Shown here in pieces: positions 1 through 17,621 of a stretch of 32,000 bases of DNA. Source of the stretch: Desulfobulbus propionicus DSM 2032 (lineage in GTDB: Bacteria; Desulfobacterota; Desulfobulbia; Desulfobulbales; Desulfobulbaceae); assembly GCF_000186885.1 (NCBI RefSeq), contig NC_014972.1, positions 1,440,001-1,472,000 on the forward strand. The letters run 5' to 3'. Numbering within the stretch: position 1 is the stretch's first letter; each line of letters starts with the position of its first letter. The position numbers and the translations under genes are program-made. The notes under the pieces are model-generated. The model had not been told where the DNA came from and made no database searches. It worked only from the letters and a program-made list of their open reading frames with translations.

Positions 1-161
1 CCAATTTCGTCCATGACCTCAATCACCAGCGGATTGAGGGTACCAGCTTCCAGCCCGCAGCTTTCGACAAAAAAGTCGTCGCGGCCGAGATGCTTGAGAA
101 AAGCCTCGGCCATCTGGCTGCGGGCTGAGTTGTGTTCACAGACGAAAAGGACTTGGAGCAT
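1..161 (-). CDS. arsC: arsenate reductase, LMW-PTP / thioredoxin-coupled type (N-terminal part only; continues past left window edge)
   Basis: Reverse translation from ATG at 161 gives MLQVLFVCEHNSARSQMAEAFLKHLGRDDFFVESCGLEAGTLNPLVIEVMDEIG. It has the CX5R(S) P-loop (CEHNSARS) typical of LMW-PTP-fold ArsC. It starts 3 nt after the acr3 stop, and the ORF is open to the window edge. Confidence 0.75.
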   Translation of the reverse strand, partial: MLQVLFVCEHNSARSQMAEAFLKHLGRDDFFVESCGLEAGTLNPLVIEVMDEI

Positions 162-164
162 GGT

Positions 165-1259: not shown

Positions 1260-1300
1260 GGCACATCCTTTGAGAAATAATGTTCAGGAATACATCCAGG

Positions 1301-1314
1301 TGCAATGCATTGCA
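1301..1314. promoter_or_regulatory. perfect 14-bp palindrome TGCAATGCATTGCA upstream of acr3 (candidate operator)
   Basis: Self-complementary 14-mer read directly from the sequence, 42-55 nt upstream of the acr3 ATG (1259). It lies in the 200-bp promoter region between the upstream operon terminator and acr3. Confidence 0.35.
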
Positions 1315-1464
1315 TTGACGATACGATCATTTTTTAATCCGCCTGGGCGGATGCGTCAATCCCAAACAAGAATAGACTAGATGGAGGTTAGAGGAAGATG
1401 GGGATTTGATCAGAAAAGCGTTTGCCGGTTGTATTTTGAGGTTCGAGGAACGCCTCGCGCAGTC

Positions 1465-1506
1465 TAAATAAAAAGCAAACGGGCTACCAGATGGGCAGCC
1501 CGTTTG
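1465..1506 (-). terminator. rho-independent terminator of the molybdoenzyme operon
   Basis: On the minus strand: CAAACGGGCT (11-nt loop) AGCCCGTTTG, followed by CTTTTTATTTA. The stem is a perfect 10 bp (1476-1485 / 1497-1506), 22 nt downstream of the stop at 1528. Confidence 0.7.
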
Positions 1507-1527
1507 TACAGTGATTGATGAAAGAGA

Positions 1528-4500: not shown

Positions 4501-4767
4501 ATTGCCGTCGATCTTGACCGCAACGCCATCGAGAATCTTGACCTTGATGCCGCAGCCGGTATTGCAGTTGAGGCAGACGGAATAAAGAGTGTTCTCCGCC
4601 TTGAGCAGTTCGTAGGCCTCGGCCTGGGTCAGTTCACCGGCCTCGACCCGGGCGATCAGGTCGCGGGCGAAATCGAAATGGGTGGCCACGATGGCGCCGC
4701 AACCGGCCAGGGCCGAAGTTTTGAGGAAATCGCGGCGGGAGACGGTTTTTGCATTCTTATTTGCCAT
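1528..4767 (-). CDS. TAT-exported molybdopterin (bis-MGD) oxidoreductase catalytic subunit, tetrathionate-reductase (TtrA)-like; substrate unknown
   Basis: The ORF spans 1528..4797. The preferred start is ATG 4767, giving MANKNAKTVSRRDFLK (twin-arginine signal). It has an N-terminal CLNCNTGCG...C 4Fe-4S motif and is about 1079 aa. Blocks such as WTTIPFNQAIEEIVSGG, HPDFGPKNNQ and VPVLPGTDAAFAMGMTRWILENKKYDAQFL resemble Salmonella TtrA as I remember it. Confidence 0.85.
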   Translation of the reverse strand: MANKNAKTVSRRDFLKTSALAGCGAIVATHFDFARDLIARVEAGELTQAEAYELLKAENTLYSVCLNCNTGCGIKVKILDGVAVKIDGNPYNPFNLHPHLEMKDAPATAVMVDAGLCPKGQAGHQGAYDPYRVTRVLKRAGKRGENKWTTIPFNQAIEEIVSGGKLFAHVTGEENRQISGLKELYALTDSKAFEDMGKDAVALRKKKPEERQAAIEEFKAKHAANLAALIDPEHPDFGPKNNQFVYFWGRKKAGRSNFAAAFTGAFGTNNTHGHTTVCQGSLYFACKAMSEQYVGNSFKDGQKFYWQADQENSDYILFVGANLFDGNYGPTNRAMRMTQRMADGKLKITVLDPRCTKLAAKAQRWVPVLPGTDAAFAMGMTRWILENKKYDAQFLACCNKAAATVIKEQTWSNGAWLVKLDKEGKPGKFLRAQEIGLKAAEKRTDKDGKEFDFEYLVTIKDGQPVAFDPNDDKQAVSGDLFVDTLLKDAEGKEIKVKSSLQLMLETAKEKTLSEYAALCGTDAATIEAVAKEFTSYGKKACVDVHRGPAQHTNGFYNIASFMNLNLLIGNFDWKGGMIAASTFNVDGTSSSTDKQPFNFKKMGPKGLKTFGTSIIRHDIKYEESTLFKGKESYPAKRNWWPISSDVYEEILPSIADGYPYQAKVVFSYMGAPTYSLPAGHTQIQALLDLDKLPLYIASDILIGPTSMYADYIIPDLHFLERWEFQGSHPNMPVRIQPVRQPVIASPNEVVKVFGEEQPISYETFWLALAEKLGFKGFGKDGFGEGQDFSRPDDFYIRMVANIALDRKEPVADASQEEIDLFLKSRRHLPKNVFDAERWQKIAGAAWPKVVTVLNRGGRFDAQAATYKGEQVANKCGKQINLYQEKTAGCKDAFTGKSYYGIARYVPVADTLGNEPAKLAEGYPLHLITQRDIRHTKARTITMPYLTDLMPENAIILHTGDAKKLGVKTGDQVKVVSATNPDGVWDLGNGNKKPMIGKVQVTETIRPGVVTFTLGHGHWDSGAVDVTIDGKLVKGDKKRAGGVHANAAMWVDPHLKNTCMIDKVGGSVSFYDTRVKLIKV

Positions 4768-5518
4768 AGAGCACCTCCAGCTTTTCGGTGGCGACATAGT
4801 AGACCCGTGGCGCGGTTTTCTTGGCCGGCTTGAGCACTTGGACCTTGTTCGCCTTTTTGACCTGGGCGATCAGGCTCTGGGGATCGTTCTCATCGCCAAA
4901 ATATCCGGACCGGCCGATGCAGGTAGTGATGCACATTGGTAACTGTCCTACAGCAAGGCGGTGGAGACAGAAATGGCATTTGCGGGCATTGCCCACCGGA
5001 GTGTTCTTGCCGGAGCGGGGCCATTTCTTGCCATATTCATAGCTGGCCATGGTCTCGTACTTTTGGATTGCCGGCGTACCGTCGCCGTGCATGCCGCCCT
5101 GATCCATGGTGCGGGCGTCGTAAGGGCAAGCAGGTACGCAGGCACCGCAACCGATGCACTGTTCGTAATTGATCATGACCAAGCCGGCGCTGAGACCCTC
5201 TGTTGACTTCCAGGTGGCTCCGTCCTTGCCCTTAACCGGACAGGCGGCGACACAGGGTGGATTGTCGCACTGCATGCAGGGCCGGGGGAGAAAGGTTCGG
5301 CTCACCTTGGGGTATTTGCCCTGCTCGTATTCATGCACCGGACGATAGTACATGCCGGGCGGCAGTTTATTTTCCGAAACACAGCCAACGGTGCAAGCAT
5401 GACAACCGACGCACTTGCGCAGGTCAATCAGCATGGCCCATCGGCGGCTCTTCTCGGGTGCCTTGAGGGCTCGCTCGAGATCTTTCTGCATCACTACCAG
5501 AATATCTTCGTTCTGCAT
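4757..5518 (-). CDS. 4Fe-4S ferredoxin-type electron-transfer subunit (TtrB/PsrB/DmsB-like)
   Basis: 253 aa with several CxxCxxCxxxCP cluster motifs (CVGCHACTVGC, CMQCDNPPCVAACP, CIGCGACVPACP, CHFCLHR...C). A strong SD (AAAGGAGGAAAGGA) precedes the ATG at 5518. It overlaps the downstream catalytic-subunit start by 11 nt. Confidence 0.9.
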   Translation of the reverse strand: MQNEDILVVMQKDLERALKAPEKSRRWAMLIDLRKCVGCHACTVGCVSENKLPPGMYYRPVHEYEQGKYPKVSRTFLPRPCMQCDNPPCVAACPVKGKDGATWKSTEGLSAGLVMINYEQCIGCGACVPACPYDARTMDQGGMHGDGTPAIQKYETMASYEYGKKWPRSGKNTPVGNARKCHFCLHRLAVGQLPMCITTCIGRSGYFGDENDPQSLIAQVKKANKVQVLKPAKKTAPRVYYVATEKLEVLYGK

Positions 5519-5539
5519 TCCTTTCCTCCTTTGATGGGC

Positions 5540-5842
5540 TTATTTCTTGTGGCAGCTTTCGCAATTTTCCTTAACGCTGAAGGCCTTTTTGCCGTTATGA
5601 CAGGCGCCACAGGATTTACCCTGCTCCATGGCCTTCATGGTCACCGCCTTATGCTGCTTGGTGTTGGTATAGAGCTTGGCATGGCAGTCCTGACACTTCA
5701 ATTCTGCCCCTGTCACATGATTTTCGTGGCTGAAAACCGTGTCTCCTCCCTTGTTTTTCATGGTGACATCGCCGCCGCCGATGCCGGCAAAGGCAACGCT
5801 TCCGGATAACATGACAAGTACCGCAGCTCGAGCCCACTTCAT
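5540..5842 (-). CDS. periplasmic triheme cytochrome c, c7/c3 (PpcA-like) family
   Basis: Three CXXCH motifs (CQDCH, CGACH, CESCH) with a C-terminal CHKK as in Geobacter PpcA-type c7 cytochromes. Signal peptide MKWARAAVLVMLSGSVAFA. ATG 5842 is preferred over the GTG at 5848 because GGGAGGTG sits 4-5 nt upstream. Confidence 0.88.
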   Translation of the reverse strand: MKWARAAVLVMLSGSVAFAGIGGGDVTMKNKGGDTVFSHENHVTGAELKCQDCHAKLYTNTKQHKAVTMKAMEQGKSCGACHNGKKAFSVKENCESCHKK

Positions 5843-5870
5843 GGTCACCTCCCTGGCTAAGGTTTATTGA

Positions 5871-5888
5871 CCGTATAAATATATCCGG
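5871..5888. promoter_or_regulatory. imperfect 18-bp palindrome CCGTATAAATATATCCGG in the divergent arsR / cytochrome promoter region
   Basis: 7 of 9 positions pair across the centre. It lies in the 116-bp gap between the divergent starts at 5842 (-) and 5959 (+). The AT-rich core is compatible with an ArsR/SmtB-type operator, but this is unverified. Confidence 0.25.
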
Positions 5889-5958
5889 CTAGACAGATGT
5901 TTACAAGGCGGGAGTGGGAACCGTTGACGTTAATTTTTCGCTGCGGTATTTTGGTGCG

Positions 5959-6309
5959 ATGCAAACAATTACTGAACTGTTCAAATCACTGTCCGATGAA
6001 ACCAGGCTGCGTCTGCTCATTCTCCTGCAAGGGGGAAGCGAGTATTGCGTCTGCGACTTAATGAACGCGCTTGATATGCCGCAATCGACGGTCTCCCGCC
6101 ATTTGGCCTATCTGAAACGAAACGGATGGCTACAGGATCGGCGAGGTGGGGTATGGATGTATTATTCCTTGAAGAAAGACATGGATGCCTTTCTCCAGGC
6201 CCAACTGGTTCTCCTCATCAATCAGTTGGCGAACAATCCTGTCTACAGGGCTGATAAGCGGCGCCTTGAAGCGTACCTGCAGGCCAAGAACCCCAATTCC
6301 TGCAAATAA
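5959..6309 (+). CDS. arsR: ArsR/SmtB family metalloregulator with CVC As(III)-binding motif
   Basis: MQTITELFKSLSDETRLRLLILLQGGSEYCVCDLMNALDMPQSTVSRHLAYLKRNGWL contains a winged-HTH and an EYCVCDL motif (compare ELCVCDL of R773 ArsR). The ATG at 5959 is preferred over the upstream GTG at 5914. Confidence 0.9.
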   Translation: MQTITELFKSLSDETRLRLLILLQGGSEYCVCDLMNALDMPQSTVSRHLAYLKRNGWLQDRRGGVWMYYSLKKDMDAFLQAQLVLLINQLANNPVYRADKRRLEAYLQAKNPNSCK

Positions 6310-6324
6310 CTGGGAGGAGCCATC

Positions 6325-7392
6325 ATGTATCGGGGGTGGCCGTTCTCTTGTCTTCCCCGGCTTGAATGGCTCCAGATAGAGATTAGTTCCGACTGCACGG
6401 CCAACTGTTTTTATTGCCCCCGAACCGTGTACAAAGACCGATGGCTCACTCAGCATATGGAGGAGAGCCTTTTCCGCCGCTTGCTGCCAGCTTTCAAGAA
6501 AATTCGCTTCGTCCACCTGCAGGGCTGGGGCGATCCTTTCACTCACCCTCAATTCTTTGACTTTGCCCGCCTTGCCAAACATGCCGGCTGCCAGGTGGGA
6601 ACCACCACCAACGGTATGCTGCTCAACGAGCGGATATGCGAACAGTTAGTCGAAGAACGCATTGACACAGTCGGGTTTTCCCTTGCCGGAACCGGCGCGG
6701 AGAACGATCACTATCGCCAAGGCACACGCCTTGAGAAAGTGTTGTCAGTCATTGAGGACATCCACCGGGCAAAGCAGCGAACTGGTGCCGACCGGCCACA
6801 CCTGCACATTGCCTATCTTTTACTCAAGTCCGGGATAGCATACCTTGACCGTCTACCTGATCTGTTGCGCAACAGAGGTATTGCACAGGTGGTTATCAGT
6901 ACCTTGGATGCGGTCGGCAGCCCTTTGTTGGCGAATGAAACGTTCTCGCCCGAGGATCGACTTGAAATGGACGAGGTGCGGCAGCATCTGGAAGAGGTTG
7001 TCGACGCCGGGCGCAAGGTGGGCCTGACCATCTACTACCGGCTCCCGGCAAATCCGAAAAAACAGGAGGGAGACCGACAATACATTGAAGATGAATCGTT
7101 CATTCCAATCCCTGAGCCGCAAATGTGCAGCGAAAATGTACAGTGTGCTGCCTTTATAGGCGTGACCGGCAACGTGTCGCCTTGCGTTTTTGTCAATTTG
7201 CCCATAACCGCTCCACCACCTGATCCTGCCGATTCCATAGCTCACCCCTATCGTCCCGTCGTGTTTGGCACCATAGCGAATGCCCGTTTTGAAAAAATCT
7301 GGCATTCACAGCCGTATGCATCCTTCCGCAAGGCTCATCACTCCGGCGCCATTCCAGCTGCATGCGAGCTGTGCACAAAGTTTTCTCGATAA
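6325..7392 (+). CDS. radical SAM enzyme with C-terminal Cys-rich (SPASM/twitch-like) region
   Basis: CX3CX2C motif (SSDCTANCFYCPR) near the N-terminus. C-terminal cysteines CSENVQCAAFIGVTGNVSPC and CELC. SD GGGAGGAG lies 6 nt upstream. The start is 15 nt after the arsR stop, so the two genes are probably co-transcribed. Confidence 0.85.
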   Translation: MYRGWPFSCLPRLEWLQIEISSDCTANCFYCPRTVYKDRWLTQHMEESLFRRLLPAFKKIRFVHLQGWGDPFTHPQFFDFARLAKHAGCQVGTTTNGMLLNERICEQLVEERIDTVGFSLAGTGAENDHYRQGTRLEKVLSVIEDIHRAKQRTGADRPHLHIAYLLLKSGIAYLDRLPDLLRNRGIAQVVISTLDAVGSPLLANETFSPEDRLEMDEVRQHLEEVVDAGRKVGLTIYYRLPANPKKQEGDRQYIEDESFIPIPEPQMCSENVQCAAFIGVTGNVSPCVFVNLPITAPPPDPADSIAHPYRPVVFGTIANARFEKIWHSQPYASFRKAHHSGAIPAACELCTKFSR

Positions 7393-7856
7393 TAACCCTA
7401 CTCTTTCACTAAGTTGCAGAATCAATCACCCCAAGGTAAAAACAGGTCAACAATCCTGAAAAATAGAGAAACTGTTTAGGCCACCGTTTCCATCCAAGCC
7501 ATTGGGTCATTGCTTTTTTCCTCAGAGATATGGATGTCTGGCTAAATGCTACATCCGATGATTTTCTCTTACCAAATCGCATTGTCGGAATAAATGAAGT
7601 CCAACACAAAACGGAGACTTTCCTAGCCGTGGCCAGTTATTATATTCGATTTAAATACAATATGTTGAATGTCGCGCCACCCGTCGTTGTCAGGTGAAAA
7701 TTCTCTCAGTCTCCCCCTGAAACCCCCTCTGTTTTTCCCCTCAACTACTTCCAAAACGATGTCACGCAGCAGGTGCGATGTCATCACCCCGGAAAAAAGA
7801 AGAGAGACCGATTGGAACGGTCGCCTTTTCCATTTTCACCAGGGATATGATCATCC

Positions 7857-8597
7857 ATGCAGTCCATCATTCTGTCTTTAGCCAGCCGATACGCTCTTTC
7901 CACCGCCGAAGTCATCCAGGAAATCGAATCCGCTTTTGCTCGCCAGCTCTCCCAGTGGTACCGCCGGGAAGTCATGGTCTTTCTCCGGGAGGGTATGCAA
8001 CTGGAGGTTGTGGCCTACGGCAAAAAGAACGGCCTTCCTGTGCAACGCACTCTCGATCTTCCGACTGTTCTTTCCCGCAATCAATTCAAGACCATTCTGG
8101 AAAACCACCTGGCCACTGCCGCAGTTATCAAACAGGTCCGCCAGCTCAAAGGGTTTGAGCGGCAGCTGCTCTGGGGCGAAGTCATCCGTAATCGGGCCTG
8201 CGACCATCTCCTGGTTGAAACCGAGATCATCCCGGACGAACCGATTATCGCCATCTGTCCCGTCAACCGGATCGGCCTGCATGAACGCCATGCTGGCCGT
8301 TTTCAGCCTGGCCAACGCCGGGCCTTCCACCTGCGCCGAATCGAACCGGTGCTTGTGAACGGCACCCCTCGTACCAAAGTCATCCTGGATCGGGTCTCGA
8401 AGACTCTGACCGAAAATTTGCTCCGCCATCATCTGGGCGATGCGGCAGATCGGTTTCACTTCCGCTGCCTGAAACGCTACGTCGGCCACAAGAGCATTGT
8501 CCTGACCACAAGAAGGTTGCCGCGCGAGGTAATCATCGCGGTGGACCGGGAACTCCAGGAACGGATCGAGGTCCGGATCGTCAAGGCCTTGTCATGA
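7857..8597 (+). CDS. cassette gene 1: hypothetical protein, NusA-like (NTD / S1-like / KH-like pattern)
   Basis: 246 aa. By-eye parallels to E. coli NusA are: an N-terminal helical segment (STAEVIQEIESAFARQL); GEVI...FQPGQRRAF (compare GEII...FRPGDRVRG of the S1 domain); VILDRVSKTLTENLL (compare FVSRSKPEMLIELF); and a C-terminal ...ERIEV (compare ERIDIV). The stop overlaps the next start (ATGA at 8594-8597). Confidence 0.6.
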   Translation: MQSIILSLASRYALSTAEVIQEIESAFARQLSQWYRREVMVFLREGMQLEVVAYGKKNGLPVQRTLDLPTVLSRNQFKTILENHLATAAVIKQVRQLKGFERQLLWGEVIRNRACDHLLVETEIIPDEPIIAICPVNRIGLHERHAGRFQPGQRRAFHLRRIEPVLVNGTPRTKVILDRVSKTLTENLLRHHLGDAADRFHFRCLKRYVGHKSIVLTTRRLPREVIIAVDRELQERIEVRIVKALS

Positions 8598-9964
8598 AGG
8601 CACCAGAACAGGCAGAGCCGAAGGTGCCCTGGACCCACATCGGACAAGGCGTACACCTCGATCATCCCCAGACGGTCATGGAACTGGGTGTGCCCGACAG
8701 CCATCGCAAGGGCCATTTTTGGTGTTTCGGTACCACCCGGGTCGGAAAGACCCGGATTATGGAGCACATCATCGAGCAGGATATCTGCAAGGGGTATTCG
8801 GTGGTGGCCATCGACCCTAAGGGCGATATCGATCTGTTCTCCAAGATCACCCAACTGGCCCATGAGACCGACCGGCTCGACGATCTGATGCTGATCACCC
8901 CGATCTTCCCCCAGTACAGCGCCATCCTTGACCCCTTGTCGTCCTACTACATGCCCGAGGAACTGGTGGCCCATATCACCGCCGGGGTGGCCATCGGCCG
9001 AGAACCGTATTTCTTCGGGGTGGCCTACGAGGTCAGCCTGGTGGTGGTCCAGGCCCTGATCATGCTGGCCGAGCAAGCCGGAACAAAGCCTTCCTTCAAC
9101 CTCAATGACATCAAGAACCACATCAGCCATCAGGATCTGGAGCAGCTCAAGGAGAAGATCGACTACATTGACAGCCCGGAGGCCAAGCAGCTCTCCCTGG
9201 ACATCCAGAAGATCCTCTCGACTCCGGCGGACTACTACTCCAAGGTGGCCAGCTCGCTGCGGGTGGCGCTCACCGAGCTGACCTCGGGTAATGTTGGCAA
9301 GATCATCGGAAAAGCTGACGAGAACCGCTTCATCCAACGGCTGGAAGAAGGCAAGGGCATCATCCTCGTGGTGCAGTTGGGATCACTGTTGACCAAGCGG
9401 GCCGCCTATACCGCCGGTAAGGTGATCATCTCCATGATCCAGGCCTTTGTCGGTCGAGTCTATTCCTCAGGCAGAGATGTAACGCCCTCGCTGGTGTTGC
9501 ATATCGACGAGGCCCAGTCCGTCCTCTACCAGGGGATCGAGGACCTCTTTGCCAAGGCCGGCGGGGCCGGGGTGTTCATCCACGGCTACTGTCAATCGAT
9601 CAGCCAGTTGTATGCCGAGGTGGGTGAAGATCGAGCCAACACCATCCTCGACAACTGCAACACCAAGCTGTTCATGCGGGTGCCGGATCCCAGCACCGCC
9701 AATTACGTCTCCGAACACCTGGGCGAAGAGAAACGGTTTTCTCCCATCATTTCCCTGGGAGGCAACGTCTCCATCCGCGAGACTGAAGAGGTACGGATTA
9801 AGCCGAGCGAAATCCTCAAGATGAAACCCCGCGAACTTTTTCTCATTACCTACTCCGGCACCTACAAAGGGGTGACCGCCACGGTTGAGGAGGGCAGGCT
9901 CAAGGTGGTCTTTCCGGATCTGGCCGGAGAGACCATCATCAAAAAACAAACCAAGAGCGGTTGA
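8594..9964 (+). CDS. cassette gene 2: VirD4/TraD/TraG (type IV coupling protein)-like P-loop NTPase lacking a transmembrane N-terminus
   Basis: 456 aa. Walker A is GTTRVGKT, followed by VVAIDPKGD. Walker B is LVLHIDEAQ. The T4CP-type C-terminal signature is CQSISQLYAEVGEDRANTILDNCNTKLFMRVPDPSTANYVSEHLGE. There is no hydrophobic N-terminal segment. Confidence 0.8.
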   Translation: MKAPEQAEPKVPWTHIGQGVHLDHPQTVMELGVPDSHRKGHFWCFGTTRVGKTRIMEHIIEQDICKGYSVVAIDPKGDIDLFSKITQLAHETDRLDDLMLITPIFPQYSAILDPLSSYYMPEELVAHITAGVAIGREPYFFGVAYEVSLVVVQALIMLAEQAGTKPSFNLNDIKNHISHQDLEQLKEKIDYIDSPEAKQLSLDIQKILSTPADYYSKVASSLRVALTELTSGNVGKIIGKADENRFIQRLEEGKGIILVVQLGSLLTKRAAYTAGKVIISMIQAFVGRVYSSGRDVTPSLVLHIDEAQSVLYQGIEDLFAKAGGAGVFIHGYCQSISQLYAEVGEDRANTILDNCNTKLFMRVPDPSTANYVSEHLGEEKRFSPIISLGGNVSIRETEEVRIKPSEILKMKPRELFLITYSGTYKGVTATVEEGRLKVVFPDLAGETIIKKQTKSG

Positions 9965-10188
9965 TGCTGAGCATCTGGCCGACGATCATCCTGGGGGTGG
10001 CTTTGGTGCTGGTTGGCGTTGCCGGCATACTGGTGCTGCGGGGTGAGGAGCAGGACGCCCCCTCGTTCCTTGAACAGATGACGCTGAGCGCCCTCTCGCA
10101 GCGGTGGGTCAGGCCCAGATCATCTACCCGGATAGAGGGGGTGAAGCATATCTCGGAGCGGCCCGCCTCTGGCGGAACGAGCAGGTGA
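9964..10188 (+). CDS. cassette gene 3: small single-pass membrane peptide (possibly the detached N-terminus of the HD protein)
   Basis: The ATG at 9964 overlaps the upstream TGA (TGATG). One TM helix (LSIWPTIILGVALVLVGVAGILVL). Codon quality drops after about codon 48, exactly where the next ORF's frame becomes coding-like (see the frameshift finding). Confidence 0.5.
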   Translation: MLSIWPTIILGVALVLVGVAGILVLRGEEQDAPSFLEQMTLSALSQRWVRPRSSTRIEGVKHISERPASGGTSR

Positions 10189-11384
10189 TTGCCGAAGGCG
10201 TCGAGAAGTTTGAACTCGTGCATCCACGCGCTCAGTCCTTTGCCAGCCAGTTGCGGGCCTGGTCCTTTTTCAACCAGGCACCCGGGCAGCGTGCGGTCTG
10301 TTTGGAGGTTGTTCGCCTGCTTGACCGTGAAGGGCAGTGCCCTTCGGTGGTCGATGTCCAGGGCGATGTGGAAGCCGCCTGGGAACAGAACACCTATCGA
10401 ATCCTGGCTAAGACCACGCTGATTGAACATTCCCTCAACGTGGCCGAACAAGTGGTCAAACTGCTCTCCGACAATCAGGCCTGGCATGTGATCCCGGATA
10501 CCATGGTGGCCGCCTTGGGACATGACCTGGGTAAGCTCAAATCAGCGCGGGGTTCGCTCTATGCCCTGGGCGAGCATCCCCTGGCCGCCGGCGCCATCAT
10601 TTCCGCCATCCCTGGGTTCAAGGAACTCTCCCGCAAGGAGGACATCCTCCGGGCCATCAAGATGCACCACAAGATGCCCGAGGGGTTACTGGGCAAGACC
10701 CTCAAGAAGGCTGATCAGCAGGCCCGGCAGCAGGAACTGGAACGGTGGGTGGGAGTGGAGGCAACCGAGGAAATCAAGGAGTCGCACGAAGAGGAAGCGA
10801 AAGAGAAGCCACTACAACCGTCATCCCGGGAAGCGGTGCAACGGGTGCAGGCTGATATCTATGGGGAAACCATCGATTCCACGTCAAGCCGGGAAGAGAT
10901 CGCACCGCCTCAGCGGATGGACATCTCCAGTTGGTTCGATGCCGCTGGATTTTTGGCCATGCTCAAGCCCTACATCAACCGGATTGAGGGTCGGCGCTTT
11001 CTGGCCTTCTCCATGACCGATGGATTGGTCTATTTCCAGGTCAAGGTCTTGGAAGAGGTGGCCCGCAAGCAGGCTCAAGATGCCGGCTGCATGGAGATCG
11101 CCACCATGGCCCAGGATGATCCCACCATGCGCCAGGTGCTGTTCAGTGTTGTGCAGCAGTTGCGCCAGCAGCATGAAGTGATTGCCACCCATTTGATCAA
11201 GGCGACCTATTTCGGCGGCTACTTTCTGGTGACCAGGAAGTTCAACACGAAGATGCGAGGATACTATACCCCCTTCCATGCCGAGGCCTTTGGCTCCATC
11301 GCCGAGATGGAACGGGCCAAGCCGGATCTGCTTCGCGACATCCTCAGTGTCAGTCCCTATACCGGCAGTGAACAGGTGAGCTGA
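10185..11384 (+). CDS. cassette gene 4: HD-domain (metal-dependent phosphohydrolase fold) protein with extended C-terminal domain
   Basis: The ORF is open from 10104 (GTG). GTG 10185 forms a GTGA overlap with the preceding stop. HD signature: IEHSLNVAEQVV...VAALGHDLGK...IKMHHK...KKADQ. It is followed by an acidic linker and a roughly 170-aa C-terminal domain (FLAMLKPYINRIEGRRFLAFSMTDGLVYFQVKVL). The start is uncertain (10104, 10185, or fused to gene 3). Confidence 0.75.
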   Translation: MIAEGVEKFELVHPRAQSFASQLRAWSFFNQAPGQRAVCLEVVRLLDREGQCPSVVDVQGDVEAAWEQNTYRILAKTTLIEHSLNVAEQVVKLLSDNQAWHVIPDTMVAALGHDLGKLKSARGSLYALGEHPLAAGAIISAIPGFKELSRKEDILRAIKMHHKMPEGLLGKTLKKADQQARQQELERWVGVEATEEIKESHEEEAKEKPLQPSSREAVQRVQADIYGETIDSTSSREEIAPPQRMDISSWFDAAGFLAMLKPYINRIEGRRFLAFSMTDGLVYFQVKVLEEVARKQAQDAGCMEIATMAQDDPTMRQVLFSVVQQLRQQHEVIATHLIKATYFGGYFLVTRKFNTKMRGYYTPFHAEAFGSIAEMERAKPDLLRDILSVSPYTGSEQVS

Positions 11385-12100
11385 TGGCCAAGGAACGGGA
11401 AGCCAAAGGGGCAAACGACACCAATGCCCAGATTATTACCACCGAGGGAGGCCGGATCTACAAGCCGGTCAACCTGCTCAGCGCCATATCCGAGATCCAG
11501 CAGTTCTATGTGATCGAGAGCAAGGGGCAGAATATTCCGGCCGAGTTCCTGACATTGGAGCGGACCATCGATTTTTTCAAGATCGGCTTGAAGAGCGGGT
11601 TCAACGAGGGCATTGCCCTGGTATTGCTGTTCCCGGTGTTCCACTTCTACCTCTTTCCCTTTGTCTTTCTCCACCTCGACTGGTTCAGCCATCTGCTCTT
11701 TGGTTGCATCCCCTATCTGCCCCTGATCATCAACACTCTCATGTGCAGCTACATCAGCCGCTACTTTGTCGGCAACATCACCCGCAAGGCGGTCAACTCG
11801 CTGCTTTCCGGCCGGGCGCTCTCCCTGCTGCTTAAGGCCTTTGTGGTTTATGTCATCTATTTGGTGCTGTTCCGGTTGAGCACCCCGGAGAACATTGGTC
11901 AGCTGGCTAGCCAGTTCGGCGCAAAAGCTCACGAAATCTATCACGGCTTCTTTGCCATCAAGCCGCATCTGGTGCCCCTGGCCACCAAGAGCAGCCTGCT
12001 CATGGTGCTGGCGGTGGTGTTTCCTTACGGATCGGTCTATCTGCTTGACTGCTGGCATCGCCACCGGATCAAGCGCAACATCCAACGTATTTCTGCCTAA
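11384..12100 (+). CDS. cassette gene 5: integral membrane protein (about 4 TM helices), no recognised family
   Basis: 238 aa. The start overlaps the upstream stop (TGATG at 11382-11386). A soluble N-terminal region of about 75 aa is followed by four hydrophobic segments (e.g. GIALVLLFPVFHFYLFPFVFL, ALSLLLKAFVVYVIYLVLF). Confidence 0.7.
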   Translation: MAKEREAKGANDTNAQIITTEGGRIYKPVNLLSAISEIQQFYVIESKGQNIPAEFLTLERTIDFFKIGLKSGFNEGIALVLLFPVFHFYLFPFVFLHLDWFSHLLFGCIPYLPLIINTLMCSYISRYFVGNITRKAVNSLLSGRALSLLLKAFVVYVIYLVLFRLSTPENIGQLASQFGAKAHEIYHGFFAIKPHLVPLATKSSLLMVLAVVFPYGSVYLLDCWHRHRIKRNIQRISA

Positions 12101-12120
12101 ACAGCAGCGGAGGTTCAACC

Positions 12121-12522
12121 ATGGAACACGAAGAAAAAAAACAACGTCCCTCTTGGCAGGAGATTGAAGAGAGGAAAATCAATCTGGTGAAGGAAAAGGG
12201 CTCACGGGTCATGCGAGTCAACTCGCCGATTGGTTCGACCATGTTCAGTATCCTGCGGCAGTTTGACATGGCCTATGCCAATTTCAAGGGCCGGCTGGGA
12301 GAGATGGGCGGCATCACCTATGAAGAAGGGGCTGCCTTGATGGAAGAAGGGCGAGAGATCGTGATGGCCTTCTCTGATTTCACCGCACGGCTCAGCCGAA
12401 GGGTCAATTTCCGCTACTATGCCCCCAATGAAATCAAAGACTATCTGGAGTTACTCAAAGCTCAGGAGAAGAGCGAAGAGGCTTCGCGTGACGCAGAGGG
12501 GGCGGTTTCGGCCGAGTCATGA
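12121..12522 (+). CDS. cassette gene 6: small charged/acidic hypothetical protein
   Basis: 133 aa. A strong SD (GCGGAGGT) lies 7-8 nt upstream of the ATG. The composition is coding-like, and I recognise no motif. Confidence 0.6.
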   Translation: MEHEEKKQRPSWQEIEERKINLVKEKGSRVMRVNSPIGSTMFSILRQFDMAYANFKGRLGEMGGITYEEGAALMEEGREIVMAFSDFTARLSRRVNFRYYAPNEIKDYLELLKAQEKSEEASRDAEGAVSAES

Positions 12523-12555
12523 CCCACCAAGGCAATTGCACCTTGCCTTGGTGGG
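12523..12555 (+). terminator. perfect 13-bp stem-loop immediately after cassette gene 6 (terminator/attenuator candidate, no U-tract)
   Basis: CCCACCAAGGCAA (7-nt loop) TTGCCTTGGTGGG, starting at the first base after the stop codon. It is not followed by a T-run. Confidence 0.35.
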
Positions 12556-12618
12556 CAAGGTCTGCTATCTCGCAAGCCATGAAACGGTTTTTCCAATTCC
12601 CCTCTACATGGAGCAGTC

Positions 12619-12903
12619 ATGAACAAAACCGAATTGATTGATAAGGTCGCCAAAGAAAGCGCCTTGAGTAAATCAGCCGCCGAACAGGTGGTGAACAGCG
12701 TCTTCTCAGCCATCGCAGAGGCGATGAAGACCGGCGACAAGGTGACTCTGGCCGGATTTGGCACCTTCTCCACTGCTGACCGAGCCGCCCGTGAAGGACG
12801 AAATCCGCAATCGGGAGAAAAGATTGCTATTCCAGCTAAAAAGGCAGTGAAATTTAAACCTGGTTCGAAGCTTGTTGATGTTATTCAATGCCCAGAGAAT
12901 TGA
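12619..12903 (+). CDS. hup: HU family nucleoid-associated DNA-binding protein
   Basis: MNKTELIDKVAKESALSKSAAEQVVNSVFSAIAEAMKTGDKVTLAGFGTFSTADRAAREGRNPQSGEKIAIPAKKAVKFKPGSKL is nearly collinear with E. coli HupA/HupB, including the GFGTF...R..R.GRNPQTG arm. Confidence 0.93.
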   Translation: MNKTELIDKVAKESALSKSAAEQVVNSVFSAIAEAMKTGDKVTLAGFGTFSTADRAAREGRNPQSGEKIAIPAKKAVKFKPGSKLVDVIQCPEN

Positions 12904-13933
12904 TTCGGTCAACAGCTTTCAATTTATGTTCGTTGAGAAGGTGGGTGTAGCGTAAAACCATCTGTAAGGTGCTGTGTCCGAGTATCGCTGCCAAGGTTCT
13001 GATATCGGTGCCTGCCATGAGCATCTGGCTAGCAGCAGTATGGCGAAGGTCATGCATGTGCAAGAGTGGCAACTTTGCACGTTCCCTGGCTCTGTCAAAT
13101 GAAGGTCTGAACCTTGAAGATGGAATGTTTTGGGCGTGCTGGCTTTTTCCTTCTCCTTTGAGAAAGACGAATTCATTGTCAAAGGCAGTTTTTTTCAGAT
13201 CTTCAAGGGCTGTAATAACAGTTTTTGTTAAAGGGACGGTTCTTGGTTCATTTTTCGTAATATAGAGGGTCAGGGAGCGTCTATCGAAATCAATCTGGTG
13301 CCATTTCAATCCGGCAGCTTCACTTGGGCGCATCGCCGTGTGGAGCAGGATCAACACGTAAGGATACAGCCTTTTATTGCGACTAGCCTTGCATTCTTTG
13401 AGCAAACGTACAGCTTCATCTTCTTTGAGAAAGAAAATCCTCCCTTTGGGAACCTTTGGGCGTTCAATCGATTTGACAGGATTTTCAATAGGTAGTTCCC
13501 ATTCTTTGCAGGCTTTGATGAAAAGGTGAGAAAGAAGAGCCAATTCCAACCGCACCGCATACGCAGATACTGATTTTAAACGTTGGTCCCGATATTTTGC
13601 GACGACGGATGGTGTGATATCGGGTAATAAAGTGTTCCTGCCAAATTTTTCTTTCAGAAGTTTTGCTATTCTTCTTTCCCGTTCCTGGGTTGTCAGGGCT
13701 TTTTGGGAAGTAACTGTTTCCAGATAGCGGTCAAAGGCCTCGTCAAGCGTACGATGAGCACGGCGCGGGTCTTTGAACCGCTGGTTTTTCATCTCCGCTT
13801 CCATTTCTGCTGCCCAGATACGTGCCTCTCCTTTTGTGTCGAACGTCCTGCTTATCGACTCGTATCCCTTGACGCGAACAGTAATGGTGTATGTCGTTTT
13901 CTTTTTCCCTTTTCTTGTGAGGATTCGAGCCAT
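12881..13933 (-). CDS. tyrosine recombinase / phage-type integrase
   Basis: Catalytic signature: LHTAMRPSEAAGLKW (Arg), HDLRHTAAS (H-x-x-R) and LGHSTLQMVLRYTHL (His, Tyr). The ATG at 13933 (MARILTRKGKKK) is preferred, with GAGGGTGG upstream; the ORF itself extends to 14011. It is adjacent to the tRNA-Leu 3' end. Confidence 0.9.
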   Translation of the reverse strand: MARILTRKGKKKTTYTITVRVKGYESISRTFDTKGEARIWAAEMEAEMKNQRFKDPRRAHRTLDEAFDRYLETVTSQKALTTQERERRIAKLLKEKFGRNTLLPDITPSVVAKYRDQRLKSVSAYAVRLELALLSHLFIKACKEWELPIENPVKSIERPKVPKGRIFFLKEDEAVRLLKECKASRNKRLYPYVLILLHTAMRPSEAAGLKWHQIDFDRRSLTLYITKNEPRTVPLTKTVITALEDLKKTAFDNEFVFLKGEGKSQHAQNIPSSRFRPSFDRARERAKLPLLHMHDLRHTAASQMLMAGTDIRTLAAILGHSTLQMVLRYTHLLNEHKLKAVDRINSLGIE

Positions 13934-14040
13934 TTTGCCACCCTCGTTTTTGTTCCATTTTTGTTCCACTTCTTTCGTCAAAATATAGCAAAAGAGAGCA
14001 CGAGAAAGCAAAAGGAATTTGTAAAGGAGGGGAGGGGAGG

Positions 14041-14087
14041 GGAGAAGAAAAGGGCTAACATCTCTCTATTTTCGAGATGTTAGCCCT
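14041..14087 (-). terminator. rho-independent terminator downstream of tRNA-Leu (potentially bidirectional)
   Basis: Perfect 14-bp stem AGGGCTAACATCTC / GAGATGTTAGCCCT (14051-14064 / 14074-14087). It is flanked by T-rich runs on both strands (TTTCTTCTCC on minus, TATTTTCTTTT on plus). Confidence 0.6.
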
Positions 14088-14097
14088 TATTTTCTTT

Positions 14098-14183
14098 TGG
14101 TACCCGGAACGAGAATCGAACTCGTACAGCCAAAGGCCGAGGGATTTTAAGTCCCTTGCGTCTACCAGTTCCGCCATCCGGGC
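14098..14183 (-). tRNA. tRNA-Leu (anticodon UAA), CCA encoded
   Basis: The reverse complement is GCCCGGATGGCGGAACTGGTAGACGCAAGGGACTTAAAATCCCTCGGCCTTTGGCTGTACGAGTTCGATTCTCGTTCCGGGTACCA. It folds as a class II cloverleaf: 7-bp acceptor, anticodon stem AGGGA/TCCCT with loop CTTAAAA, a long variable arm, and T-arm ACGAG-TTCGATT-CTCGT. It is very close to E. coli leuZ. Confidence 0.95.
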
Positions 14184-14334
14184 AGGATGGGGATTTTATA
14201 CACTCCTCCGGTCGGTTTGTCAAACGGAGAAGCTTTTGAAGTTCCGGCAGGTTAACAGTGGCGTTTGGCTTTGCGGGTATGCTATGATGCCGCGATGTTT
14301 CTCGGGGTTTCCATTACGATCATCCATAAAGAGC

Positions 14335-15321
14335 ATGCGCAAAGTCATCATTATAACAGTGGCCTTTATCTTGTTGGTTCTCATCGGAACCTTCGGCTAC
14401 ATGATTCTCGAGAACACCGGGTTTTGGATGGGCATGTATCTGACCATCATCACCGTGTTCACCGTGGGCTACGGCGACATCGTGCCCATTCATCCCTCGG
14501 GACGCATTTTCACCGTCTTTCTGGTGATCACCAGCGTCGCCTTTGTTTTTTATACCTTCACCAAGATCACCGAGACGATGATCGAGGGCGAGCTGCGCGG
14601 TTTGTACAAGAGGAGAAAGATGAACAAAGAGATCGCCCGGTTGCGGGACCATTACATTATCTGCGGCTTTGGTCGGATCGGCAAGGAAATCTGCAGGATT
14701 CTCCAGGAGCACCACCGTCCTTTCCTGGTGATTGAAAAGGACGAGGAGGAAATCAGAACCCTGGAGGAGTTGGGCTATCTGCGCTTGCAGGGGGACGCCG
14801 CCGACGACGAGGTACTGCAGACCGCCGGCATCGAGCGCGCCAAAGGGCTGGTGTCGGTGGTGGCCTCCGATGCCGACAACCTCTACATCACCCTCACTGC
14901 CCGCGGTTTGAACCCGGTTCTGTATATCATGGCCCGTTCCAGCGGCGGCCCCGGTGTGCAGATCAAACTCAAGCGGGCTGGAGCCTCGAAGGTGATTTCG
15001 CCCTATTCGATCGGCGCCCGCCGCATGGCCCATCTCATTGTCCGGCCAACGGTCGCCGATTTCATCGACCTGACCATGCGGGCCGGCGAACTCGATCTGA
15101 TCATGGAGGAATTGCAGGTCGGCCCCGCGTCGCATCTCAGCGGCAAGAACCTGATCGAGTCCGAGATCCGCAAGAAGTACGACGTGATCGTGGTGGCGAT
15201 CAAACGTCAGGATGGAAGCATGCTGTTCAATCCCAAGCCCGACTCGGTGATCATGGCCGGCGATATCCTCATCGTCCTGGGCGCCAGCGAGCACATCCTC
15301 GGCTTGGGTAAGGAGATGTGA
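14335..15321 (+). CDS. 2-TM potassium channel with RCK/TrkA-N and TrkA-C domains (MthK/Kch-like)
   Basis: TVGYGD selectivity filter between two TM helices. Rossmann motif ICGFGRIGKEI, and a C-terminal TrkA-C-like segment. The upstream ORF extension from 14077 overlaps the tRNA and is rejected. ATG 14335 (MRKVIII) is preferred; ATG 14284 is possible. Confidence 0.88.
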   Translation: MRKVIIITVAFILLVLIGTFGYMILENTGFWMGMYLTIITVFTVGYGDIVPIHPSGRIFTVFLVITSVAFVFYTFTKITETMIEGELRGLYKRRKMNKEIARLRDHYIICGFGRIGKEICRILQEHHRPFLVIEKDEEEIRTLEELGYLRLQGDAADDEVLQTAGIERAKGLVSVVASDADNLYITLTARGLNPVLYIMARSSGGPGVQIKLKRAGASKVISPYSIGARRMAHLIVRPTVADFIDLTMRAGELDLIMEELQVGPASHLSGKNLIESEIRKKYDVIVVAIKRQDGSMLFNPKPDSVIMAGDILIVLGASEHILGLGKEM

Positions 15322-15432: not shown

Positions 15433-16611
15433 TCAGACCGAACGAACGATGGTCAGCATCTCCCGCACCGCATTTTCCAGCCCGACCAGCACCGCGCGGC
15501 TGATCACCGCATGGCCGATGCTCAACTCCTCGATATAGGGCAGGGCGGCGATGGGGTGGGTGTTGCGGTAGTCGAGCCCATGACCGGCGTTGACCCGCAG
15601 ACCTGACTCATAAGCCAGTTCCGCGGTCTGCTCGATCAGCCGGAACTGCTGTTCCTGCTCTTCCATGGTCCGAGCCTCGCAGTAGCGGCCGGTGTGCAGT
15701 TCGACAAAGGTGGCGCCCACATCGAGCGCCGCCTGCACCTGGGCCGCATCCGCATCGACAAACAGCGACACCGGTATCCCCGCCTTGCGCATCTTGTCGA
15801 TGGTCTTGGTCAGTTTCTTGGCATTGGCCAGCACATCCAGACCACCTTCGGTGGTCAGCTCCTTGCGCTTCTCGGGCACCAGGGTAACCATGTCCGGCAC
15901 CACTTCCACGGCAATATCGACAATTTCAGGAACATTGGCCATCTCCAGATTGAGCTTGGTCTTGACCGTTTGGCGCAGCAACCGCACATCGCGGTCCTGA
16001 ATATGGCGCCGATCCTCGCGCAGGTGAACGACGATGCCGTCGGCCCCGGCCAGTTCGCAGAGCGAGGCGGCCAGCACCGGGTCGGGTTCCTGGCCGCCGC
16101 GCGCCTGGCGGATGGTGGCCACATGGTCAACATTGATGGCGAGAAAGGGCATGGCTGTACTCCTTGTAGTTTGAAGCTGCTGAAACAACTCTTGTTCGTA
16201 ATCCCACATGCGCACCGCTTCCTCTTCCGAGCGCTCGTGGTCGTAGCCGATCAGGTGTAGCATGCCGTGGATGATCAGCTGGGTCAGCCGGTGGTGCAGG
16301 CTGTGGCCTTGCTGGCCGGCCTCGCGGCGGGCGGTGTCCACCGAGATGAGGATGTCGCCCAGTTCGTTTTCCGGGGCGACGAATCCTTCCCCACCCTCGG
16401 CGGCGGGAAAGGAGAGCACGTTGGTGGGCCCATTTTTCCGGCGATACTGCTCGTTGTAGGCCGCCATTTCCGCATCGCCGAGAAAGACGACGCTGACGTC
16501 GGCCCCTTCCAGCTTGAGCAGGCGCGCAAGATGCTCGGAGCGCAGCTGCAGCAGACGGCGGTTGAGGGAATAATGGGCGATATCGTTGCTGAAACTGCAA
16601 TGAACGGCCAT
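15433..16611 (-). CDS. ybeY-pdxJ: in-frame fusion ORF: YbeY endoribonuclease domain (N-terminal ~150 aa) + pyridoxine 5'-phosphate synthase PdxJ (C-terminal ~239 aa)
   Basis: YbeY motif: [11 protein letters not shown]. PdxJ motifs: [58 protein letters not shown]. There is no stop codon between the two domains. An internal ATG at 16152 is preceded by AAGGAG. ATG 16611 is preferred over TTG 16617. Confidence 0.85.
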
Positions 16612-16613
16612 GG

Positions 16614-17621
16614 TCAACCCTCCTTTTCGGCGCGGGCACGCCGGGCCGCATCCTGCTGCTCGTAGGCTTGGATGATTTCCTGAACCAATGGATGGCGGAC
16701 CACGTCGGCCTTGGAGAAGTGGCGAAAGGCAATGCCCTTGATGCCGGTGAGGATCCGTTCGGCCTGAATCAGTCCGGATTTCTGCGTGCCTGGCAGGTCA
16801 ATCTGGGTGACGTCGCCGGTAATCACCGCTTGCGAGTCGAAGCCGATGCGGGTGAGGAACATCTTCATCTGCTCGCGGGTGGTGTTCTGGGCCTCATCGA
16901 GGATGATGAAGGCGTTGTTCAGTGTCCGGCCGCGCATGAAGGCCAGCGGCGCCACCTCGATCACTCCGCGCTCGGTCAGCTCCTGCGTGCGTTCCTGACC
17001 CATCATGTCGTTGATGGCGTCGGTCAGCGGCCGCAGATAGGGATCGACCTTCTGGGCCATGTCGCCGGGCAGGAAACCGAGTTTCTCGCCGGCTTCCACC
17101 GCCGGCCGGGTGAGGATGATCTTGGCCACCTGCTCCTTGGCCAGGGCAGAAACCGCCATGGCCACAGCCAGATAGGTCTTGCCTGTGCCCGCCGGGCCGA
17201 TGCCGAAGACAATGTCGTTTTCGCGGATCGCCTCGATGTAGAGTTTCTGGTTGACCGATTTGGGCGAGATCACCCGCTTGCGCGCGGTGATGCAGACCTT
17301 GTCGAGGAAGATTTCCTCCAGCCGGGCTTGAGGCGAGGATTCGAGGATCTTGACCCCAAAGGCGATATCCTGGCTGAAGACCGGATAGCCCTTGAGCAGC
17401 AGGCCATACATCTGCTGCAGGGTGGAGGCGGCCAGCTCGACCGCGTGCAGGCGGCCATTGATCCGCAGACCGTTGCCGCGGGCATTGATCGTCACCCCGG
17501 TGGCCTGCTCGATGGTGTGCAGGTTGCGGTTGAGCTCGCCGAACAACTGCTGGGCGAGCCTGTTGTCGGCAAAATCGATCTCCCGCGAGGTTTCGACGTT
17601 GAGGGCTGCCGAGGGCTTCAC
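16614..17621 (-). CDS. phoH: PhoH-like ATPase (PhoH/YbeZ)
   Basis: 335 aa. Walker A is [16 protein letters not shown] and Walker B is FIILDEAQN, collinear with the YbeZ family. The GTG start at 17621 has GGAGGAG 10 nt upstream. The canonical ybeZ-ybeY neighbourhood is present. Confidence 0.92.

Follow-up and report, generated by a model that had tools for sequence, protein, structure and literature searches.

The stretch of DNA analysed here, referred to as the window, comprises 32,000 nucleotides (nt) of Desulfobulbus propionicus DSM 2032 (NC_014972.1, positions 1,440,001-1,472,000). Its subject is a compact gene cassette located beside the genes for an HU-family DNA-binding protein, a tyrosine integrase and a tRNA-Leu. 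The open reading frames (ORFs) of the cassette share one strand and are found at 7857-8597, 8594-9964, 9964-10188, 10185-11384, 11384-12100 and 12121-12522. A first-pass annotation read these as six genes with four start/stop overlaps, and all of the strings on which it relied are present (ATGA at 8594-8597, TGATG at 9962-9966, GTGA at 10185-10188 and TGATG at 11382-11386). The GGAGG reported ahead of the last gene is likewise in place. The count of six is wrong, as the third ORF, taken for a separate peptide with a single transmembrane (TM) segment (74 amino acids, aa), and the fourth, which encodes an HD domain, are the two halves of a single gene in the relatives.

When the HD ORF was used as a query, 413 relatives were retrieved; among those listed, full-length sequences mostly measure approximately 470-500 aa, with 472 aa in the closest. 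In the relatives of the window, the protein is encoded as one chain of 472-480 aa. The sequence of the third ORF is that of the N-terminus of the HD protein in these relatives, for example in P0001 (MLSIWPTIILGVALVLVG...KHISELAHLWRNEQV). Alignment with the loci L005, L009 and L095 shows that a single T has been lost from the window between 10159 and 10160, where GAGCTGGCC becomes GAGC-GGCC. This deletion shifts the frame, and it is the shift that creates the GTGA ‘junction’ at 10185. The lesion is private to the window sequence, because a contig with an ACR3 gene 100% identical to that of the window retains an intact 472-aa HD gene, and it represents either a mutation or a sequencing error. 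A programmed frameshift was ruled out, as the relatives are in frame. Judged by alignment with the relatives, the cassette is one of five genes with three genuine start/stop overlaps, and these three junctions are conserved among them. The genes are referred to below as g1, g2, the HD gene (g3+g4), g5 and g6.

The most conserved of the five is g2 (8594-9964, plus strand), with a median identity of 85% across loci. The protein is 96-98% identical where the DNA is approximately 88% identical, which indicates purifying selection. The product is a 456-aa soluble ATPase resembling the type IV coupling proteins of the SXT/R27 TraD lineage. It matches the Pfam families TraG-D_C (1.3e-17), TrwB_AAD_bind (1.3e-13) and T4SS-DNA_transf (2.7e-10), all above the cut-offs. 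The best NCBIfam models, SXT_TraD (1.6e-50) and TOL TraD (2.7e-40), are both matched below their curated cut-offs. The score against SXT_TraD (TIGR03743) is 172 bits where the cut-off is 366, and g2 is therefore a relative of this subfamily and not a member by the definition of the model. The NCBIfam match begins only at model position ~160-167, and the alignment with R27 TraD covers residues 199-586 of the latter. A Walker A sequence, GTTRVGKT, is found at residue 46. The hydropathy profile contains no N-terminal TM or hydrophobic segment, and the protein comprises the nucleotide-binding and all-alpha domains only. Both the Pfam coupling-protein matches and the missing N-terminal segment agree with the earlier description of a soluble TraD-type ATPase.

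The HD gene (9964-11384, plus strand) is split by the 1-nt deletion in the window and encodes a protein of 472 aa in the relatives. This protein begins with a TM helix, continues with an HD domain and a linker that is acidic and predicted to be disordered, and ends in an alpha/beta C-terminal domain of ~150 aa. The HD domain matches the Pfam HD model (3.5e-6), and the residues H155, H186-D187, H204, H234-H235 and D250 (P0001 numbering) are invariant in 42 sequences. In the AlphaFold2 (AF2) model (predicted local distance difference test, pLDDT, 76), residues 266-311 are predicted to be disordered and are followed by a well-predicted alpha/beta C-terminal domain. The large C-terminal domain that had been proposed beside the HD domain is thus seen in the model, and the HD domain itself in the Pfam match. 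The family of this C-terminal domain forms 273 clusters at 50% identity among 1.84 billion representatives, and it is nearly always C-terminal in proteins of 440-840 aa. All ten distant members examined contain an HD domain (PF01966), with nothing else recognisable except a YdjM membrane domain in one. By this distribution, the domain defines a separate small family that occurs exclusively C-terminal to HD domains. Profile searches of PDB sequences with the HD protein and with the C-terminal domain returned nothing useful.

The first gene, g1 (7857-8597, plus strand), encodes a basic protein of 246 aa (pI 10.3) with remote NusA-like features, namely an N-terminal domain and an S1/KH-like part. 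It has no match in Pfam, NCBIfam or PHROG, hence no NusA domain by family models. The g1 profile gave only weak NusA-type matches to PDB sequences, several in number, with E values of 0.4-7. The AF2 model has a mean pLDDT of 60, falling below 50 at residues 97-164. For this model, the top Foldseek match (E 1.8e-3, prob 0.99) is to a chain of 492 residues in a transcription-translation complex from E. coli; this chain, whose description reads ‘Nu...’, is taken to be NusA. The earlier label ‘NusA-like’ is kept on the strength of the sub-threshold profile and low-confidence fold matches, as a reasonable but weak label to which no family model lends a match. The protein is a candidate nucleic-acid-binding accessory factor.

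The 238-aa product of g5 (11384-12100, plus strand) has four TM segments, and its cytoplasmic N-terminus carries a strongly conserved motif (AISEIQQFYVIE..GQ.IP.EFLTL). The hydropathy profile places the TM-like segments at 75-98, 104-122, 140-167 and 195-224, which confirms the four predicted at first pass. No Pfam family is matched, DUF4400 included. Kinship with the DUF4400 protein of R27 or with the TM region of R27 TraD was considered and rejected, the comparison giving no significant match and only a short RYxxGNxT resemblance (E 0.06). The protein is a candidate membrane partner or anchor for the soluble TraD-like ATPase. The last gene, g6 (12121-12522, plus strand), encodes a mildly acidic protein of 133 aa (pI 5.4) that is conserved along with the cassette; no informative match was found in Pfam, PHROGs or PDB.

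A conserved non-coding leader, delimited by blastn and by aligning the sequences ahead of g1, precedes the cassette at 7560-7856 (plus strand). In six related loci, blastn shows DNA homology beginning abruptly at 7560-7566. The leader contains the motif GTCATCACCCCGGAAAAAAGAAGAGAGA at 7780-7807, followed by a hairpin with the arms GACCG (7805-7809) and CGGTC (7818-7822). In 25 of 30 loci, the motif takes the form GTCATCCC-N-GAAAAAAG-N-TATAGA and is located 74-80 nt before the ATG of g1. The hairpins on its 3′ side vary in sequence between loci with the pairing kept. The motif is a candidate for the promoter/operator of the operon or for part of the origin of transfer (oriT).

Conservation and integration sites of the element

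A scan of one genome per species identified 75 cassette loci, nearly all of them in Desulfobulbales and often several in one genome. The order g1-TraD-HD-g5-g6 is constant in ~70 Desulfobulbales loci. Where sequence was available beside the HD gene, g2 lies next to it in 57 of 59 loci, g1 in 46 of 56, g5 in 57 of 67 and g6 in 50 of 62. This co-occurrence, which extends well beyond this strain, is more than chance. By the same count, an HU gene is found after g6, within 3.5 kb, in 39 of 59 loci, and an integrase within 10 kb in 26 of 42.

In several loci, extra genes are located between the HD gene and g5, mostly on the opposite strand (L018 4431-5825, L050 1000-2915, L041 11583-12857 and L043 11145-12471). 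They include a gene for a Fic-domain protein, an M48 peptidase with a partner of no recognised family, and others of no recognised family. These insertions break a junction that is otherwise overlapping and look like a cargo hotspot inside the operon.

The HU, integrase and tRNA-Leu genes that had been reported beside the cassette were all located. The HU-family protein (12619-12903, plus strand; Pfam Bac_DNA_binding, 1.6e-33) belongs to the backbone of the element. The tyrosine integrase (12881-14011, minus strand; Pfam Phage_integrase, 1.2e-33) is convergent with the HU gene and overlaps its 3′ end. In Desulfobulbus oligotrophicus (L084, 14885-16011), an IS3-type transposase gene (rve) stands between g6 and the HU gene and apparently truncates the latter. 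The tRNA-Leu(taa) gene, found with ARAGORN at 14098-14183 on the minus strand, has its 3′ end towards the integrase; attachment is presumed to occur here, which would make this gene the right-hand limit of the element. Beyond the tRNA, the window shares synteny with L005 and L006, and this part is chromosome.

The same arrangement of an integrase adjoining the 3′ end of a tRNA gene is found in the window and in 26 other loci, at seven tRNA species. The targets are tRNA-Leu(taa/gag/caa), Arg(cct/tct), Phe(gaa) and SeC, and the 3′ end is always towards the integrase. Integrases beside the cassette are 44-85% identical to that of the window, each lineage pairing with a different tRNA gene. To the left of 7560, gene content differs between loci. 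Linkage to HU and integrase genes at varied tRNA genes, the sharp edge of homology at 7560 and the variable genes to its left are the grounds on which, by sequence comparison, the cassette is an invariant backbone of a family of integrative elements and not cargo. This departs from the first-pass annotation, in which the neighbourhood of integrase and tRNA was seen as an address for defence or hitchhiking cargo; it is the flanking genes that vary.

One locus (L095, IMGVR_UViG_3300048576_000182, 1-13356) is catalogued as viral. It contains the cassette, the same integrase (98.7%) and tRNA-Leu(taa), followed by a second integrase-like gene and a second HU-like gene. It is likely to represent a tandem insertion at the same tRNA rather than a phage-borne cassette. 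Searches of PHROGs assigned no phage function to the cassette proteins.

Counterparts on plasmids and among known systems

The intact HD protein was compared with PLSDB by tblastn and found on eight plasmids, seven of which are typed as non-mobilizable (no known relaxase). Five of these were inspected (Trichlorobacter, Desulfosarcina, Geobacter, Campylobacter and Pelobacter), and in each case the HD gene comes after a gene for a soluble protein of ~450 aa annotated as ‘TraM recognition domain’ or TraG-like. The TraD-HD pair adjoins a lytic transglycosylase gene or genes for TraF, TraH, TraN, TraU and TrbC. Pore types MPF_F or MPF_T are listed for three of the five plasmids whose typing was read. 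E values for the plasmid homologues range from 1e-136 to 4e-203 for TraD and from 5e-30 to 1.5e-75 for the HD protein. Profiles built from Desulfobulbales sequences also recognise the plasmid neighbours as g1 (5e-25 to 3e-9) and g5 (9e-45 to 1e-21). On the Geobacter, Trichlorobacter, Pelobacter and Campylobacter plasmids, the TraD-like gene is directly preceded by a g1 homologue, and on those of Campylobacter, Desulfosarcina and Trichlorobacter a g5 homologue lies beside it. For g6, there is a single weak plasmid counterpart (1.4e-4).

The Campylobacter plasmid pCIG1485E was read as a whole. It encodes TraL, E, K, B, C, H, N, G-N, F and U and TrbC, a complete F-type set. The soluble TraD-like protein is the only coupling protein of this plasmid, and no relaxase is annotated. 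Genes of a type IV secretion system (T4SS) accompany g2 homologues on the five plasmids and in the loci L073-L077. In L073, TraF and TraH genes lie upstream of a cassette with the gene order of the window, and chromosomal variants in Desulfobacterales have the order g5-TraD-HD followed by TraN, TraU and TraF. The order is also kept in a distant metagenomic member (P0428), in which a 283-aa protein, a TraD-like protein and an HD protein are encoded in turn.

Coupling proteins of the SXT and TOL TraD type are the partners of MOBH relaxases. The mobH and traD genes are adjacent in R27 and in five other MOBH plasmids, with RecT/YqaJ or UvrD genes sometimes beside them. The nearest known counterparts of the cassette are the DNA-processing clusters of MOBH elements with F-type pores, in which traI (mobH), traD and a gene for a small membrane protein stand together, as in R27 Tra1, SXT/R391, IncC and the gonococcal genetic island with TraI-TraD-Yaa. 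In the TraI proteins of MOBH systems, the relaxase domain is globular and of HD type, and a disordered middle part separates it from a C-terminal domain that is likewise globular (PMC6736028, PMC12857230). Some of these proteins have an N-terminal membrane-association helix, and the TraI gene clusters with those for TraD and a small protein of the inner membrane, close to an F-type pore (PMC6736028, PMC12857230).

The cassette shares several of these features. It places an SXT/TOL-type TraD beside an HD protein and a small membrane protein, in association with an F-type pore, as in MOBH/F-type clusters (PMC6736028). The HD protein has the layout of MOBH TraI, with HD domain, disordered linker and globular C-terminal domain, and has an N-terminal membrane-association element similar to that of gonococcal TraI (PMC6736028). 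Genes for RecT/YqaJ-type recombination, single-stranded DNA-binding protein (SSB) and UvrD helicase are neighbours in both cases.

There are also clear differences. At 472 aa, the HD protein is about half the size of MobH (880-1010 aa). It lacks the TraI_2/TraI_2_C signature and the HHH motif, contains a true TM helix and has a more compact spacing (H-x30-HD-x16-H-x29-HH-x14-D). The gene order is g1-traD-HD-g5, and not mobI-x-mobH-traD. MobI is absent, with the NusA-like protein instead, and g5 is not detectably DUF4400. No relation was found between g1 and the R27 protein encoded upstream of mobH. In a distant metagenomic relative, a gene for an S49/SDH-type peptidase follows the HD gene. An S49 peptidase gene likewise follows the traD, hypothetical and DUF4400 genes at R27 Tra1, and this peptidase, seen at L097 2510-3778 and L089 8869-10050, may be another accessory common to both lineages.

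Unlike the TraD partners of MOBH relaxases, g2 is without the TM domain of ~195 aa. Coupling proteins that lack a membrane domain and are recruited by a separate membrane protein are known, for example TraJ and TraI of pIP501. The resemblance lies in a coupling ATPase without TM helices that is encoded beside small membrane proteins. The pIP501 lineage, however, is Gram-positive and VirD4-like; the likeness is one of architecture, and recruitment in the present case would follow by analogy.

The carriage of a relaxase together with a coupling protein is a recognised strategy of integrative mobilisable elements (IMEs; strategy I, Guedon et al. 2017, PMC5704250). Relaxases of the MobH or MobF type, according to the same review, are not known from any canonical IME (PMC5704250). 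The present element resembles such IMEs in its tyrosine integrase at a tRNA gene, its compact mobilisation module with a coupling ATPase of its own, the absence of pore genes nearby and its variable cargo, which includes defence and resistance genes. It differs from them in that the candidate relaxase stands outside the named MOB families and in that excision, attachment (att) sites and a helper are only presumed. The combination of genes, which had not been recognised as any named module at first pass, is indeed unnamed in the libraries searched, yet it belongs to a known kind of machinery.

A candidate DNA-processing module and its alternatives

Taken together, the cassette is probably a conjugative DNA-processing and coupling module (a ‘Dtr’ equivalent) of tRNA-integrating elements in Desulfobulbales, which are most likely IMEs. 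The first of two readings offered at first pass, a mobilisation module with a coupling protein, is favoured by the backbone linkage and by the F-type context on plasmids, without the MOBH membership that it ascribed to the HD protein. We infer a mobilisable status for the element, a nickase role for the HD protein, anchoring by g5 and the location of the oriT.

In the proposed mechanism, the products of the five translationally coupled genes would form a membrane-associated complex. The ATPase g2 would act as a TraD-type hexamer that has lost its own membrane domain, and the four-TM protein g5 and the TM-anchored HD protein would hold it at the membrane. The HD protein would nick the DNA in a metal-dependent manner at the origin of transfer, for which the conserved leader upstream of g1 is the candidate. 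The basic, NusA-like g1 would be a nucleic-acid-binding accessory protein and the small g6 a further member of the complex. The HU protein and the tyrosine integrase would carry out DNA bending, excision and integration at the tRNA gene. The element would supply its own coupling protein and nickase and use the F-type pore of a conjugative element present in the same cell.

The assignment of the HD protein as a conjugative nickase or relaxase is tentative. It is reached by elimination, as this is the only enzyme of the cassette besides the ATPase, and by its invariable coupling to the TraD-like gene, the lack of another recognised relaxase on the related plasmids and the precedent of MOBH. More tentatively still, the HD protein may be the founder of a relaxase family that is missed by MOB typing, with kinship to MOBH through the HD fold only. 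Its partners would be a split coupling protein (the soluble TraD ATPase with the four-TM g5) and a NusA-like accessory.

Several observations weigh against the proposed module or parts of it. The HD protein has no match to TraI_2, TraI_2_C or MobH at E <= 0.1 in Pfam and NCBIfam. Alignment with six MobH sequences by hhalign gave a probability of 9.7% (P = 0.0033), and only the generic HD motifs align. The position of the MOBH motif SENHHH reads (D/E)ENTY in the HD proteins, where T143 is invariant and Y144 is invariant in a 13-sequence alignment. Foldseek searches of the PDB with the HD protein model returned nothing with E < 0.1, and the MOBH-related structures 3KQ5 and 2IPQ are absent among the 50 matches listed. 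The HD domain sequence scores better with Cas3-type HD models (1.3e-6). The protein is therefore ‘MOBH-like’ only by analogy of architecture and context, with no detectable membership of MOBH. As to the element, the window copy of the cassette has a frameshifted HD gene and may be inactive. The fixed distance between the leader motif and the ATG may mean that the motif is simply a promoter, the oriT being only a candidate. Repeats of the tRNA 3′ end, whether exact or fuzzy, were found neither in the window nor in the 10-kb flanks of 27 loci nor in the leftward contig extension; either the far att end is beyond the sequence seen or the repeat is very short. With no such repeat to delimit the element, a T4SS could sit further off.

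The failure of the HD protein in every test of MOBH membership is one ground for an alternative in which the cassette is a transfer module whose HD protein is not a nickase. It would instead be a nucleotide or second-messenger phosphohydrolase, or some other regulator tied to the coupling ATPase, with the relaxase supplied by a helper in trans or by an unrecognised protein such as a tyrosine recombinase. The Campylobacter homologue is annotated as a diguanylate cyclase, and EAL-domain or response-regulator genes neighbour the module on three plasmids. Tyrosine-recombinase relaxases exist, such as TcpM of pCW3 (PMC5704250, PMC12857230), as do IMEs without a relaxase of their own (PMC5704250). 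This alternative is nevertheless rather doubtful. It leaves the sole predicted enzyme besides the ATPase, always adjacent to and translationally coupled with the TraD-like gene, with no part in DNA cleavage, and the plasmids without any recognised relaxase. HD domains that cut single-stranded DNA are known (MOBH TraI, PMC6736028), and the best PADLOC match of the HD protein is a Cas3 HD nuclease.

What follows for the classification of mobile elements depends on this point. Such elements are counted and classed by relaxase typing, and one with an unrecognised nickase is scored as non-transmissible. The five-gene set is annotated as hypothetical wherever it was seen. On several plasmids with a full F-type pore it has no rival as a candidate for the DNA-processing machinery, and in the sulfate-reducing Desulfobulbales it forms the fixed core of multi-copy islands that move arsenic, mutagenesis and phage-defence genes between tRNA sites. 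A new relaxase family would explain the ‘non-mobilizable’ typing of plasmids with complete F-type pores in Thermodesulfobacteriota and Campylobacterota. It would also define widespread tRNA-integrating mobilisable islands in Desulfobulbales, whose cargo serves defence, arsenic handling and mutagenesis. Should the HD protein be a nickase, it would add a type of relaxase and would offer, for the HD-based cleavage of DNA by MOBH, which is poorly understood, a second model of smaller size; the case would also show a coupling protein whose membrane domain has passed to separate subunits. Otherwise, the module remains the mark of a conserved complex accessory to F-type conjugation.

The element is regarded as most likely mobilisable rather than self-transmissible because pore genes are absent nearby. 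The statement that the window has neither a T4SS gene nor a classical relaxase was borne out. Nineteen transfer-region queries (18 F-type pore components and the lytic transglycosylase) were used in a homologue search of 84 loci and 1.2 Mb in total, and none was found within 10 kb on either side in ~65 Desulfobulbales loci. Four regions extended to 17-32 kb contained no T4SS genes either. These results bear on a further alternative, namely a complete integrative conjugative element (ICE) capable of its own transfer, of which the cassette would form the Dtr end and whose F-type pore genes would lie further from the integrase than the sequence covered. The ends of the element were never located, the islands are large and rich in cargo, and ParA, DUF932, RadC and SSB, backbone genes typical of ICEs, are present. 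In L073 and the Desulfobacterales variants, T4SS genes are found within 6-10 kb of the cassette. A complete ICE is unlikely, however, given that no homologue of TraB/C/E/F/G/H/K/L/N/U was seen in the Desulfobulbales loci or the extended regions, and that the 17 kb to the left of g1 in the window contains arsenic and ATPase genes.

The second first-pass reading, an anti-phage or anti-plasmid defence system (ATPase, HD nuclease and membrane effector) carried as island cargo, is highly improbable: the partial PADLOC matches (mad8, 9e-15, for g2 and Cas3 HD, 1.3e-6, for the HD protein) and a neighbourhood rich in STAND NTPases, type I restriction-modification (R-M), JetD and BrxR speak for it, but those matches are to generic single domains with no other MADS, CRISPR or Cas component in PADLOC, g1, g3 and g5 have none and g6 only a weak one (PDC-M02B, E 0.004-0.011), g2 fits conjugative TraD models far better (1.6e-50), the cassette is constant while the defence genes change between loci, and the plasmid counterparts lie inside T4SS regions where the g2 homologue is the sole coupling protein.

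Probable island cargo and flanking genes

The genes to the left of the cassette differ from locus to locus. In the window, a block of arsenic genes at 165-7392 encodes an ACR3-type permease, a 1089-aa molybdopterin oxidoreductase with its 4Fe-4S subunit, a cytochrome c7, ArsR and a radical-SAM/SPASM protein, as assigned by Pfam. The leftward source contigs (L098 7661-12648 and L100 11099-15735) add two ArsC, ArsA, an ArsD-sized ORF, ArsR and ArsP. An N-type-like ATP synthase operon, containing AtpR and ATPase_gene1, comes after the arsenic genes in these contigs. The left flank of the window (1-6399) is also found next to the cassette in L008. As it recurs there despite a different integrase and a different tRNA, it is most simply regarded as island cargo, and the arsenic block is probably cargo also.

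A second group of genes is recurrent upstream of g1 on the opposite strand. It encodes DUF932, RadC, SSB, a Cas4/Dna2-like exonuclease and a weakly Bet-like protein, with ParA beyond. The DUF932-RadC-SSB module was found in L003/L087, L025/L088, L027, L031, L044, L060 and L084. The exonuclease (1.8e-43) and the Bet-like protein (1.4e-6) of the islands match proteins of the Campylobacter plasmid pCIG1485E, and SSB is also common to both. The variable genes of the islands include STAND NTPases, type I R-M, JetD, BrxR and an SNF2/methylase set. In Desulfobulbus oligotrophicus (L084), an imuB/dnaE2/LexA-like mutagenesis cassette is located just upstream of g1.

Two further observations were made to the right of the element. 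An ORF for a TrkA-type potassium channel (14077-15321, plus strand) starts inside the tRNA-Leu gene of the opposite strand. Its real start is probably further downstream, and the Pfam domains fit 14377-15321. Beyond it, in the chromosomal flank, a 394-aa ORF (15433-16617, minus strand) contains a YbeY endoribonuclease domain (37-148) and PdxJ (159-390) in an apparent fusion.

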